IMG/VR virus record: IMGVR_UViG_3300018486_000204
DNA: 4,190 nucleotides
Reading direction: 5' to 3' (one strand)
DNA from: a virus
Lineage: Duplodnaviria; Heunggongvirae; Uroviricota; Caudoviricetes
Below are positions 1 through 4,190 of this stretch, in pieces; positions within the stretch are counted from its first letter, which is position 1, and every line of letters starts with the position of its first letter. A program made the position numbers and the translations under genes. The notes beneath the pieces were generated by a model. The model did not search any database and had not been told where the DNA came from. It was given only the letters and a program-made list of their open reading frames with translations.

Positions 1-6
1 ATTCAT
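1..6 (-). CDS. rmlD: Start of the next O-antigen gene, probably dTDP-4-dehydrorhamnose reductase (rmlD/rfbD); only ATG AAT (Met-Asn) lies inside the window
   Basis: Minus-strand sequence at the rmlB stop reads TAATGAAT, so an ATG (plus 4..6) overlaps the rmlB TAA (plus 6..8) in the classic TAATG coupling arrangement. An rmlBDAC gene order is usual in E. coli O-antigen clusters, and RmlD begins Met-Asn as I recall. Two codons cannot confirm identity. Confidence 0.35.
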
Positions 7-1091
7 TACTGGCGGCCCTCATAGTTCTGTTCAATCCACGATTGATAGGCACCACTTTTCACATTATCAACCCATTTTGTATTGGACAGGTACCATTCCA
101 CTGTCTTCCGAATCCCGCTCTCAAACGTTTCCTGCGGTTTCCAGCCCAATTCGCGGCTAATCTTCTCTGCATCAATCGCATAACGGCGATCGTGTCCCGG
201 GCGATCGGCAACATAAGTAATTTGCTCGCGGTAAGATTTCTCTTTCGGTACAATCTCATCCAGCAAATCACAAATAGTGAGCACTACATCGATGTTTTTC
301 TTTTCGTTGTGTCCACCAATGTTATAAGTTTCACCCGCTTTACCTTCGGTTACGACGGTATATAACGCACGCGCATGATCTTCAACATACAGCCAGTCAC
401 GAATTTGATCCCCTTTGCCATAAATAGGTAATGCCTTACCTTCCAGAGCATTGAGAATAACCAATGGAATCAATTTTTCCGGGAAATGATAAGGACCATA
501 ATTGTTAGAGCAATTAGTCACAATGGTTGGTAAACCATAGGTACGTTTCCACGCGCGGACTAAATGATCGCTGGATGCTTTTGAAGCGGAATAAGGGCTG
601 CTTGGCGCGTAAGCTGTTGTCTCTGTAAATAAGGGTAATTCTTCTGTATTATTTACCTCGTCAGGATGAGGCAAATCACCATAGACTTCGTCAGTAGAAA
701 TATGATGAAAACGGAAGCTAGTTTTCTTGTCGCTATCAAGAGCAGACCAATAATTGCGAGCGGCTTCCAAAAGGACATATGTACCAACAATATTGGTTTC
801 AATAAATGCCGCAGGACCTGTAATTGAACGGTCAACATGGCTTTCAGCAGCCAGGTGCATCACTGCATCTGGCTGATGCTGAGCAAAAATCCGTGCCATT
901 GCAGCTGCATCGCAAATATCCGCATGTTCAAAAACATAGCGTTCGGAATCAGAAACATCTGCAAGTGATTCCAGGTTTCCGGCGTACGTTAATTTATCAA
1001 CATTAACAACACTATCCTGCGTATTATTTATAATGTGACGAACTACAGCAGAACCAATAAATCCTGCGCCACCAGTAACAAGTATTTTCAC
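6..1091 (-). CDS. rmlB: dTDP-glucose 4,6-dehydratase (RmlB/RfbB), extended SDR family
   Basis: 361-aa ORF with N-terminal Rossmann motif GGAGFIGS and catalytic Y-x-x-x-K (YSASK). Near-identical over its full length to E. coli RfbB as I recall it. Uses a GTG start (plus 1089..1091 = cac) and a TAA stop at 6..8. Sits immediately downstream of galF and JUMPstart, the canonical first position of the O-antigen operon. Confidence 0.96.
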
Positions 1092-1166: not shown

Positions 1167-1178
1167 CACGCTACCGCC
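1167..1178 (-). promoter_or_regulatory. ops element (operon polarity suppressor), recruitment site for the antiterminator RfaH
   Basis: Minus strand reads 5'-GGCGGTAGCGTG-3' (plus strand cacgctaccgcc), an exact match to the canonical 12-nt ops sequence, in the untranslated leader about 75 nt upstream of the rmlB start. Confidence 0.9.
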
Positions 1179-1205
1179 CCTGGCTTTACAGCTACCAGAG
1201 CACTG
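1167..1205 (-). promoter_or_regulatory. JUMPstart 39-bp conserved element upstream of a polysaccharide gene cluster (contains ops at its 3' end)
   Basis: Minus strand 5'-CAGTGCTCTGGTAGCTGTAAAGCCAGGGGCGGTAGCGTG-3' matches the JUMPstart consensus found upstream of rfb, cps and kps clusters, as I recall it. Position between galF and the first O-antigen gene is the expected one. Confidence 0.88.
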
Positions 1206-1463: not shown

Positions 1464-2357
1464 TTATTCGCTTAACAGCTTCTCAATCCCTTTACGGAAC
1501 TTCGCCCCTTCTTTTAGGTTACGCAGTCCATACTTCACAAACGCCTGCATATAGCCCATTTTTTTACCGCAGTCGTAGCTGTCGCCGGTCATCAGCATGG
1601 CATCAACGGACTGTTTTTTCGCCAGTTCAGCAATGGCATCAGTCAGCTGAATACGTCCCCATGCACCAGGCTGCGTACGTTCAAGTTCCGGCCAAATATC
1701 GGCAGAAAGCACATAGCGACCAACGGCCATGATGTCTGAGTCCAGCGTCTGCGGCTGATCCGGTTTTTCGATAAATTCAACAATGCGGCTGACTTTACCT
1801 TCGCGATCCAGTGGTTCTTTGGTCTGGATGACGGAGTATTCAGAGAGGTCACCCGGCATACGTTTTGCCAGCACCTGGCTGCGTCCCGTTTCATTGAAGC
1901 GCGCAATCATGGCAGCAAGGTTGTAACGCAACGGGTCGGCGCTGGCATCATCGATAACAACGTCCGGCAGCACCACGACAAATGGGTTGTCGCCAATGGC
2001 GGGGCGTGCACACAAAATGGAGTGGCCTAAACCTAAAGGTTCACCCTGACGCACGTTCATAATGGTCACGCCCGGCGGACAGATAGATTGTACTTCCGCC
2101 AACAGTTGACGCTTCACGCGCTGCTCAAGGAGAGATTCTAATTCATAAGAGGTGTCGAAGTGGTTTTCGACCGCGTTCTTGGACGCGTGAGTTACCAGGA
2201 GGATTTCTTTGACCCCTGCAGCCACAATCTCGTCAACAATGTACTGAATCATTGGCTTGTCGACGATCGGTAGCATCTCTTTGGGAATCGCCTTAGTAGC
2301 AGGCAACATATGCATCCCAAGACCTGCTACCGGTATAACTGCTTTTAAATTCGTCAT
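1464..2357 (-). CDS. galF: GalF, UTP-glucose-1-phosphate uridylyltransferase paralogue (GalU-like, regulatory/low-activity subunit)
   Basis: 297-aa [47 protein letters not shown]..., matching E. coli GalF essentially throughout as I recall it, with the nucleotidyltransferase N-terminal G-rich motif. ATG start at 2355..2357 preceded by an AGGTAGGA-like ribosome-binding site. Conserved position between the colanic-acid and O-antigen clusters. Confidence 0.96.
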
Positions 2358-2497
2358 TATTTTCCTACCTCTAAGTGGCTGATAGTGCGTAAATTATTGC
2401 CATAGGTTAGCCAAGCGTTATGGCTATATAGCAAAGCTTAGTGCCGCATAACTTTGATTAAACCTTACGATAACACTACACACCATCAGCATCTGGG

Positions 2498-2558
2498 TTA
2501 CTCGGATTACTCGGAAATCCACATACTGATAATTTAATCAGTACCTCTTTCCGAATAA
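2498..2558. repeat. Composite repeat block in the gne-galF spacer: 9-bp tandem direct repeat, 7-bp perfect inverted repeat, and an inverted 8/9 copy of the 9-mer
   Basis: Read directly from the sequence: ttactcgga at 2498..2506 and again at 2507..2515; palindrome TACTGAT-aattta-ATCAGTA at 2524..2543; tccgaataa at 2550..2558, whose reverse complement ttattcgga matches the 9-mer at 8 of 9 positions. Spacers of 8 and 6 bp give a near-symmetric layout. Confidence 0.6.
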
Positions 2559-2599
2559 TCGTAGCCCAACCTGGCCCTTTTTTCTCTGACTCGTCTGCA

Positions 2600-3595
2600 T
2601 TACTCAGAAACAAACGTTATGTCGTCTTTTTTGGCATGAACGAATTCATACTGCAGAGTTCGATCCAGACCTTGCGACAGCGTATACGGTGCCACAAAAC
2701 CTGAAGAATGCACTTTCGTTGCGTCAAACTGTGTTGTTGCGCAGAATTTTTTCACGCGCACAGAGCTGACAGCGTATTTTTTGCCCGTAATTTTGCTCAG
2801 GATATCAAAGCAATATCCACCCAGCATTCCTAGTGGATAAGGCAAGTGCATAGAAGGGATCTTTTTGTTCAGACTTTGTTCAACTTCAGCAACCAACTGG
2901 TTCATGTTCAGGTCTGGCTTATCAACGTAGTTATAAACCTCGTAACCTGCGGCAACATTCTTCAGTTTGTACTTGATAAACTCAACAATGTTTCCAACAT
3001 AAGCCATGGACTTATAGTTAGTCCCTGCGCCCACCATCATAAACTTGCCGCCAGCGATCTGTTTCAGCAAGTTATAGACGTTACCGCGGTTGCGTTCACC
3101 GAAGATAACGGTAGGACGGATGATGGTTAATGAACGTTCTGTTGGTGCTTTGTTATACCATTCACGCAGCACTTCCTCTGCCTGCCACTTACTTTTGCCG
3201 TAGTGGTTGAAAGGATCGTGTGGATGGTTTTCGTCAGGGTTGTGTTTGTTCAAACCATAAACAGCAACGGAACTGGTAAAGATGATATTTTTAACGCCAT
3301 TTTTTTCCATGGCCGCCAGCACATTGCGGGTACCCTGAACGTTGACATCATAATAGAGAGAAGTAGGGCTGACGTCATCGCGGTGTTCCGCTGCCAGTAG
3401 TACAACAGTGTCAAAACCGGCTAACGCCTGGTCGAGTGCCTGTTGATCACGAACATCGCCAATCTGTGTGATTTCTGGATAAAAGTGGCTCTGCTGTTTG
3501 TCCAGGTTCTTGATATTAAAGTCAGCAATTGCCGTTTCAAGTAGTCGGGTTCCTACGAATCCGGAAGCTCCTATGAGCAAAACGTTATCGTTCAT
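2600..3595 (-). CDS. gne: Gne, NAD-dependent UDP-N-acetylglucosamine 4-epimerase (GalE-like extended SDR)
   Basis: 331-aa ORF with N-terminal Rossmann motif GASGFVG (plus 3551..3571) and catalytic Y-x-x-x-K (YGKSK). Matches my recollection of the Gne protein (Z3206 in E. coli O157) found between wcaM and galF in serogroups whose O-antigen contains GalNAc. ATG start at 3593..3595, TAA stop at 2600..2602. Confidence 0.88.
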   Translation of the reverse strand: MNDNVLLIGASGFVGTRLLETAIADFNIKNLDKQQSHFYPEITQIGDVRDQQALDQALAGFDTVVLLAAEHRDDVSPTSLYYDVNVQGTRNVLAAMEKNGVKNIIFTSSVAVYGLNKHNPDENHPHDPFNHYGKSKWQAEEVLREWYNKAPTERSLTIIRPTVIFGERNRGNVYNLLKQIAGGKFMMVGAGTNYKSMAYVGNIVEFIKYKLKNVAAGYEVYNYVDKPDLNMNQLVAEVEQSLNKKIPSMHLPYPLGMLGGYCFDILSKITGKKYAVSSVRVKKFCATTQFDATKVHSSGFVAPYTLSQGLDRTLQYEFVHAKKDDITFVSE

Positions 3596-3752
3596 AAATC
3601 ACTTTAGTCTGGTTGTTACATAAGAAACACAAGATAAAGATGAGTACCTTCCCTGAGTAGTCAATGCTGCCCAGCCCCAGCTTTAACAGTTAGTGTGAGG
3701 ATTATAATCTTTTAGAACATTATATCCAGTAAGTTTATGAATGGTCGCAAAT

Positions 3753-4190
3753 CTACTCCCTCCGTTCCGGCAATCTAAAGTTAATCTTTTCCACATTAAC
3801 AATATGGTGATTAATCCTGTCGATATCGACGGAGCTTTGCCCTCTTTCATTCACCGCATGAACATTTGCAAGTGACAGCAGTGTTTCTTTTTTCGCCATA
3901 AAGACGCCGCGAACGTCTTTGCGCATGTCGAAGTTCATGCTCAATGCTGATCCAACTGAGGATTCCTGCATCACATTGATATTACGCATAAAAAGATGTT
4001 GCGGTTTGTTGTGTAACTCCAGCGACGCACGCTTCATCTCAATGTTAGTCAGCGCCACAAAGGAGACGGCATTCCCGGCGGAGATTTGGATACCGCGCAA
4101 TTTATAAGCAAGATGGGTGTTATCCAGTTGAATATTATTCACTCGGAAATTTTGCGGTATCGAGAGATATTTGCCTTTAATTACCCCATA
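3753..4190 (-). CDS. wcaM: C-terminal portion of colanic acid biosynthesis protein WcaM (5' end lies beyond the window)
   Basis: The minus-strand reading frame stays open from the window edge (4190) to a TAG stop at 3753..3755. The ORF track's start at 4142 is only an internal GTG codon, and the upstream in-frame codons translate without a stop (…[23 protein letters not shown]…). Called mainly from synteny: wcaM is the last colanic-acid gene directly upstream of gne/galF in E. coli. I cannot verify the sequence from memory. Confidence 0.62.

Follow-up and report, generated by a model that had tools for sequence, protein, structure and literature searches.

The stretch of DNA analyzed here (4,190 nucleotides in full, referred to below as the window) carries four genes, all of them on the minus strand. 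The one at the upstream end, wcaM, runs off the window edge and is represented by its C-terminal 145 amino acids. The genes, spacers and smaller elements are, read along the minus strand:

3753..4190, minus strand: 3' end of wcaM, the last gene of the colanic acid cluster (WcaM model NF007517, positions 320-464 of 464, E = 5e-90)
3596..3752, minus strand: wcaM-gnu spacer, 157 bp with 36% GC, the region upstream of gnu
3701..3728, minus strand: promoter-like site (-35 TGGATA at 3728-3723, a 16-nt spacer, -10 TATAAT at 3706-3701)
2600..3595, minus strand: gnu coding sequence, 331 amino acids (open reading frame, identity to the O157:H7 protein WP_000999466.1, PF01370 match, SDR motifs)
2358..2599, minus strand: gnu-galF spacer, 242 bp
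2498..2567, minus strand: inverted repeat or stem-loop of 70 nt just 3' of gnu (arms at 2548-2560 and 2505-2517, TCGGAAA ... TTTCCGA)
1464..2357, minus strand: galF, full length, the downstream neighbor of gnu (GalF model TIGR01105, 688 bits against a cut-off of 659)
1167..1205, minus strand: JUMPstart RNA element (Rfam RF01707, 60 bits against a gathering value of 35, E = 1.7e-12)
1171-1178, minus strand: ops element within JUMPstart, GGCGGTAG (ops match)
6..1091, minus strand: rmlB/rfbB, with which the O-antigen operon of this strain opens (NF007490, 798 bits; cut-off 649)

The open reading frame at 2600..3595 begins with ATG, has its stop codon inside these coordinates and keeps the same start position in orthologues of other genera. 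Its product matched the Pfam family PF01370 (NAD-dependent epimerase/dehydratase) with 107.6 bits against 20.9; at E = 8.5e-31 such a match means that the 331-codon frame is not a chance one. A first-pass annotation of this DNA had placed a 331-amino acid epimerase gene here, between wcaM and galF, and the reading frame and the family matches of the flanking genes agree with it. It had also stated that E. coli K-12 has no gene at this site, which was borne out when the loci were compared: in K-12 MG1655 only 174 bp, without any annotated gene, lie between wcaM and galF, against 1395 bp (2358-3752) in the window. The two intergenic regions could not be aligned beyond the gene ends, and the K-12 spacer contains no remnant of gnu.

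The protein encoded by the gene is the same, at 331 out of 331 residues, as WP_000999466.1 of the O157:H7 strain F7386, for which the RefSeq product name is UndPP-GlcNAc 4-epimerase. In an O157:H7 genome this accession is the product of the one gene that separates wcaM from galF, and we have equated it with Z3206 by its site and not by locus tag. It is annotated between wcaM and galF in two further strains as well, one of the O166 family and one of the rfbBDAC type. The gene can thus be named gnu (formerly gne, and Z3206 in O157) and, with high confidence, be taken to encode an NAD-dependent epimerase of the extended SDR type that converts UndPP-GlcNAc to UndPP-GalNAc. The EC number of this reaction is presumably 5.1.3.26. 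The gene is an already known, ordinary and routinely annotated one, carried by about one in four E. coli genomes.

As recounted by Cunneen et al. (2013; PMC3682973), gne was the initial name of the gene located upstream of the O157 and O55 clusters, and the original annotation in O55/O157 was that of Wang et al. (2002), as told by Cunneen et al. (2013). According to the account of Rush et al. (2010) given in the same paper, the O157 enzyme was inactive on UDP-GlcNAc and active in the conversion of UndPP-GlcNAc to UndPP-GalNAc. Cunneen et al. (2013) gave the name gnu to the proteins of their clade D, separate from the Gne/GalE clade A, and reported that in 104 of 115 serogroups gnu is present or absent as the O-antigen structure would lead one to expect, and that O86 requires both gnu and a true gne. 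A later review (Liu et al., 2019) places gnu upstream of galF in O55 too, with the same functional assignment, and subsequent reviews and structure papers have kept both the assignment and the site just upstream of galF. The LL004 locus described in a 2021 paper has the same geometry as the window (wcaM ends at 1394, gnu spans 1553-2548 and galF starts at 2791). Iguchi et al. (2014), on the other hand, still call the gene outside galF "gne (UDP-GalNAc-4-epimerase)". The name gne used in the first-pass annotation is hence obsolete, superseded since Cunneen et al. (2013) and at variance with the RefSeq product, and the gene should be annotated as gnu (UndPP-GlcNAc 4-epimerase), not as gne or galE. 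Its statement that O157 and O55 carry the same gene holds, by protein identity for the former and through the review of Liu et al. for the latter. Its caution about the substrate raised the right question, but the function need not stay provisional, because the protein is identical to the biochemically characterized O157 enzyme. We also observed that orthologues at 82-88% identity in other genera mostly go under the names "NAD-dependent epimerase/dehydratase family protein", "UDP-glucose 4-epimerase" or "UDP-N-acetylglucosamine 4-epimerase".

The protein contains the motifs G9xxG12xxG15 and Y132xxxK136. When aligned by BLASTP to K-12 GalE, its S109, Y132 and K136 stand opposite S124, Y149 and K153 of the latter, and these three residues are invariant across 34 orthologues. 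Judging from its sequence, Gnu is a member of the extended SDR superfamily, with a predicted Rossmann fold, the GxxGxxG motif, the putative catalytic Ser and YxxxK. The earlier description of the product as "GalE-like" is correct as far as this fold is concerned, but does not extend to the family. With the GalE model TIGR01179, whose cut-off is 262.3 bits, the protein obtained 71.4 and matched only in the N-terminal part (residues 5-170), while PRK10675 gave 56 bits against a cut-off of 394. Identity to K-12 GalE was 30% over 299 gapped columns with 17% gaps, and identity to the GalE-type epimerase encoded within an O166-family cluster was 24%. A comparison with Gne/Z3206 and GalE proteins, which had been proposed from the outset, thus sets complete identity to the O157 enzyme against 24-30% to the GalE-type ones. 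No NCBIfam model matched the Gnu protein at or above its own cut-off.

A sequence search of the PDB retrieved no close solved structure for Gnu (best E = 2e-17), and the AlphaFold2 model, built on an alignment of 34 orthologues with at least 81% identity, had a mean pLDDT of 67 and a pTM of 0.71. Confidence was low in segments 111-131, 166-194, 275-289 and 315-331, the putative substrate-binding segments especially. The top Foldseek matches in the PDB were all generic extended SDRs at about 20% identity, with TM-scores of only 0.5-0.65 because the model is weak; with that same weak model, the solved structures nearest by fold were UDP-hexose 4-epimerases. Neither the weak model nor the Foldseek matches gave structural support for binding of a lipid substrate. 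A transmembrane anchor was considered and rejected, the highest 19-residue Kyte-Doolittle mean being 1.45, at the beta-1 strand of the Rossmann fold. We assume that Gnu associates peripherally with the membrane.

Two other functions might be read from these data. The gene could encode a genuine Gne, i.e., a soluble UDP-GlcNAc 4-epimerase that supplies UDP-GalNAc, as first annotated in O55/O157. The original naming (Wang et al., 2002, cited in PMC3682973) and the label kept by Iguchi et al. (2014) favor this, as do the extended-SDR fold and catalytic triad shared with GalE and the UDP-hexose 4-epimerases found nearest by fold. However, the identical O157 enzyme is reported to be inactive on UDP-GlcNAc (Rush et al., 2010, as summarized in PMC3682973), Gnu forms a clade apart from Gne/GalE and O86 needs both genes (PMC3682973), and the match to the GalE model is well short of the cut-off and confined to the N-terminal domain, with 24-30% identity to GalE-type enzymes. 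We consider a genuine Gne very improbable. The protein could otherwise be an SDR acting on another lipid substrate, of the 3-beta-HSD/HpnA/OleD kind and unrelated to O-antigen initiation. Such a reading finds some echo in the PF01073 (3-beta-HSD) match at 95.7 bits, in the best NCBIfam matches, which are HpnA, LegB and OleD-type reductases (all below cut-off), and in the sterol dehydrogenase NSDHL, one of the two best PDB sequence matches. Yet these scores are either far below the family cut-offs or generic overlaps at the clan level, the protein is identical to a characterized O-antigen enzyme, and polysaccharide genes adjoin it in Enterobacterales and also in Bacteroidota (a glycosyltransferase gene upstream in 43 of 50 loci). 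The chance that it is right appears to us negligible.

With Gnu as an UndPP-GlcNAc 4-epimerase, O-unit synthesis proceeds as follows. At the inner membrane WecA makes UndPP-GlcNAc, Gnu inverts C4 to give UndPP-GalNAc, as described in the literature for the identical protein, and the glycosyltransferases of each serogroup then build the O unit on UndPP-GalNAc. In this way the O unit can start with GalNAc though the sole initiating transferase transfers GlcNAc-1-P. By analogy with GalE, a tightly bound NAD+ would transiently oxidize C4, giving a 4-keto intermediate that would be reduced again from the opposite face. Y132 would be the base, with K136 and S109 assisting, since these are the conserved residues of the GalE type. 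The gene itself would be transcribed from its own conserved promoter of the sigma-70 type located in the wcaM-gnu spacer.

This last point derives from the spacer. The first-pass annotation had pointed out that the gene has its own upstream spacer, and its 157 bp indeed contain a conserved promoter-like site, matching the sigma-70 consensus at 10 of 12 positions about 105 nt upstream of the gnu ATG. Among 13 aligned wcaM-gnu spacers of Enterobacterales the mean column identity was 40%. The CTG of the -35 region was invariant and TATAAT was kept at every position (five invariant and one nearly so). The conserved blocks of the spacer are mainly these two elements and the stretch directly before the ATG. 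Phylogenetic footprinting therefore supports a putative dedicated gnu promoter, conserved across genera. The JUMPstart element with its ops, on the other side, lies downstream of galF, between this gene and rmlB, where it is expected for an O-antigen leader and marks the start of the O-antigen operon proper. This puts both galF and gnu outside the O-antigen operon that depends on RfaH, as had been proposed before for gnu. A scan for canonical terminators gave none in either the wcaM-gnu or the gnu-galF spacer.

The gnu-galF spacer contains a second element of interest, the hairpin just 3' of gnu. In 14 sequences of Enterobacterales the arms TCGGAAA/TTTCCGA were invariant and their spacing was constant (30-32 nt), while the loop sequence was free. 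The surrounding 115 nt have a folding energy of -36.3 kcal/mol (z = -3.9). In the hairpin alignment 85.7% of the cells pair, against only 23-63% in slid registers, and there is a compensatory change in 4 of the 16 pairs. The covariation score was 0.158, compared to 0.107 in shuffles, and 5 of the 500 shuffles attained it. With a loose alignment of 19 spacers RNAalifold gave no structure, and the hairpin appeared only after anchoring on the arms. Altogether there is moderate support for a putative conserved RNA structure 3' of gnu. A covariance model found the hairpin exclusively 3' of gnu, at 22 loci, and nowhere else in 434 kb that included the empty K-12 site. In E. coli it is single-copy and present in 1314 genomes, approximately the number of those with gnu. 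It appears to belong to the gnu module, although outside the coding sequence. It matches no Rfam family and has no U-tract; it could act as a terminator, as a stabilizer of the gnu transcript or an insulator of it from galF, or as a binding site for a regulator.

Judged by its nucleotide differences, the window is a recombination mosaic. The best match over its whole length among the genomes compared was 98.4-98.6%, but the differences are unevenly distributed. From wcaM to the gnu-galF spacer, only three sites differ from the O166-family strain 1190, all of them synonymous and located in gnu, whereas galF differs from that strain at 39 sites and from rmlB-type strains at 19-44. The rmlB segment is 99.2% identical to that of several serogroups, including one genome with K-12-like coordinates. 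The exact RmlB protein of the window was found, with gnu upstream, in two different types of rhamnose cluster. One of these RmlB-sharing clusters, that of UMNF18 among others, reads rmlBDAC-wzx-wzy-GT2-GT2-gnd-ugd, again with gnu upstream. UMNF18 we take to be O147, with an O unit starting with GalNAc. As for the present strain, whose cluster beyond rmlB lies off the window, we infer that the O unit probably starts with GalNAc.

The mosaic structure bears on another alternative, namely that this is a bona fide gnu without any role in this strain, the O unit being perhaps initiated with GlcNAc and the gene having been carried along by recombination of the wcaM-galF flank. The near identity to the O166-family strain from wcaM through gnu to the spacer, next to a galF that is 39 sites apart, is what such an event might leave behind, and gnu adjoins many different O-antigen clusters. 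Against it, the reading frame is intact and under strong purifying selection, the overall fit of gnu presence with GalNAc as the first sugar is close (PMC3682973), and rhamnose-type clusters with this RmlB allele, for instance the one in UMNF18, are likewise accompanied by gnu. We regard a gnu without a role as unlikely, and hold to the reading of a working gnu that serves a GalNAc-initiated O unit. The first-pass annotation had linked the gene to serogroups whose O unit "starts with or contains GalNAc"; the association with GalNAc as first sugar stands, but the mere presence of GalNAc does not suffice (Cunneen et al., 2013; Liu et al., 2019). The presence of gnu predicts a GalNAc-initiated O unit, which is useful to infer O-antigen structures and for glyco-engineering, although this is textbook knowledge in the O-antigen field.

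Among 5426 complete E. coli genomes gnu was present in 1324 (1315-1324 gene-bearing), nearly always as one copy per chromosome, and 3324 had the empty wcaM-galF site of the K-12 type. The gene is thus accessory, as had been noted. That it was "inserted", as the first-pass annotation put it, is not demonstrated, because the order wcaM-gnu-galF is shared by about 20 species representatives of the Enterobacterales, including Enterobacter, Kluyvera, Cedecea, Lelliottia, Trabulsiella, Pseudescherichia, Siccibacter and Dryocola. There are no notable direct or inverted repeats flanking gnu that would point to insertion of a mobile element. The locus resembles a long-standing presence/absence polymorphism that recombination exchanges along with the O-antigen clusters. 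It is just as plausible that gnu was lost in the lineage of K-12 as that it was gained in this one.

E. coli alleles differ from that of the window by 3-13 nucleotides and 0-1 amino acid changes, and that of E. albertii by 106 nucleotides but only 10 residues. The gnu gene is intact and under strong purifying selection. Some irregular cases were also found. Of the approximately 1340 places with gnu among the complete E. coli genomes, one belongs to a record classed as a plasmid, and 13 records have divergent alleles with 80-95% DNA identity. There are also shorter E. coli variants of 296-305 amino acids (P0013-P0017, P0026, P0029 and P0056; P0017 is 99% identical over the aligned part), which may be truncated alleles or alternative gene calls. 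In the O169/O183-family strain G6/7 (locus L005, 3751-5387) an IS1 replaces gnu and truncates wcaM, with the gnu-galF spacer retained. In the O160-family strain FXCREC004 (locus L007, 3241-5307) gnu is split by ISApl1, and an IS3 element and a truncated wzx are also present. The two halves of this split gene were named differently by PGAP, the 3' fragment being called "UDP-N-acetylglucosamine 4-epimerase".

Full-length homologues of Gnu with 65-77% amino acid identity turned out to be widespread in Bacteroidota (Marinilabiliales-type, Bacteroidales, Alistipes and Muribaculaceae). The set comprised genomes and MAGs (loci L036-L095), with the match at approximately 3001-3990 of each. The neighbor upstream was a glycosyltransferase gene in 43 of 50 of these loci, usually directly adjacent. 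In a quick neighbor-joining tree the enterobacterial Gnu proteins nest among those of Bacteroidota, so that enterobacterial gnu may have been acquired from Bacteroidota by cross-phylum transfer. In Mixta theicola (locus L033, 1704-2603) the gnu homologue was not located in the wcaM-galF interval. A WecA homologue, 53% identical to that of E. coli, precedes it, an arrangement in which the producer of the substrate adjoins the epimerase. A WecA-like gene was considered as a consistent partner in Bacteroidota and discarded, as one was found by tblastn in no more than 5 of 80 loci (the enterobacterial Mixta among the five) and by Pfam in 3 of 42 downstream Bacteroidota neighbors.

Given the promoter conserved across genera, the stem-loop found only with gnu and the Bacteroidota homologues at 65-77% identity, one may speculate that gnu is a traveling cassette, a self-contained "first-sugar switch" with previously undescribed cis elements and a cross-phylum origin. 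We offer this only tentatively and think it rather doubtful. What is added here to a known gene is the cross-genus promoter, the conserved 3' hairpin and the close relatives in Bacteroidota, and these are relevant only to the regulation and evolution of the O-antigen locus.

It remains to place this Gnu among the systems known. With GalE and Gne (K-12 GalE, O86 Gne2 and the Gne of Yersinia enterocolitica O:8) it has in common the extended-SDR fold, GxxGxxG and the aligned Ser-Tyr-Lys, and presumably, by analogy, the oxidation and re-reduction chemistry at C4. It differs in the substrate, which according to the literature is a membrane-bound UndPP-sugar and not a nucleotide sugar (PMC3682973). 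True gne genes are, moreover, inside the galF-gnd cluster, while gnu is outside (PMC3682973; Liu et al., 2019). GnaB/WbpP, the UDP-GlcNAcA 4-epimerase, likewise inverts C4 of an N-acetylhexosamine derivative and was once named Gne, too, but by its description it belongs to clade B and acts on a nucleotide sugar (PMC3682973). The Gnu of Yersinia pseudotuberculosis (O6, O7, O3, O10 and others) shares clade D and the function proposed for it, and the correlation reported between its presence and a GalNAc first sugar is absolute (PMC3682973). However, it differs from the E. coli enzyme at about 50% of the residues and its gene is inside the O-antigen cluster (PMC3682973). The Bacteroidota homologues are, at 65-77% identity, closer to E. 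coli Gnu than this Yersinia enzyme with its reported figure of about 50%. The closest of the known systems is that of O157:H7, with which the window shares an identical protein, the wcaM-galF site, closely similar spacers (about 157 and 242 bp) and the same RefSeq product. The two gnu genes are separated by eight nucleotide differences, all synonymous, and the O-antigen operon downstream opens with rmlB in the window, whereas that of O157 opens with a glycosyltransferase gene followed by wzy.
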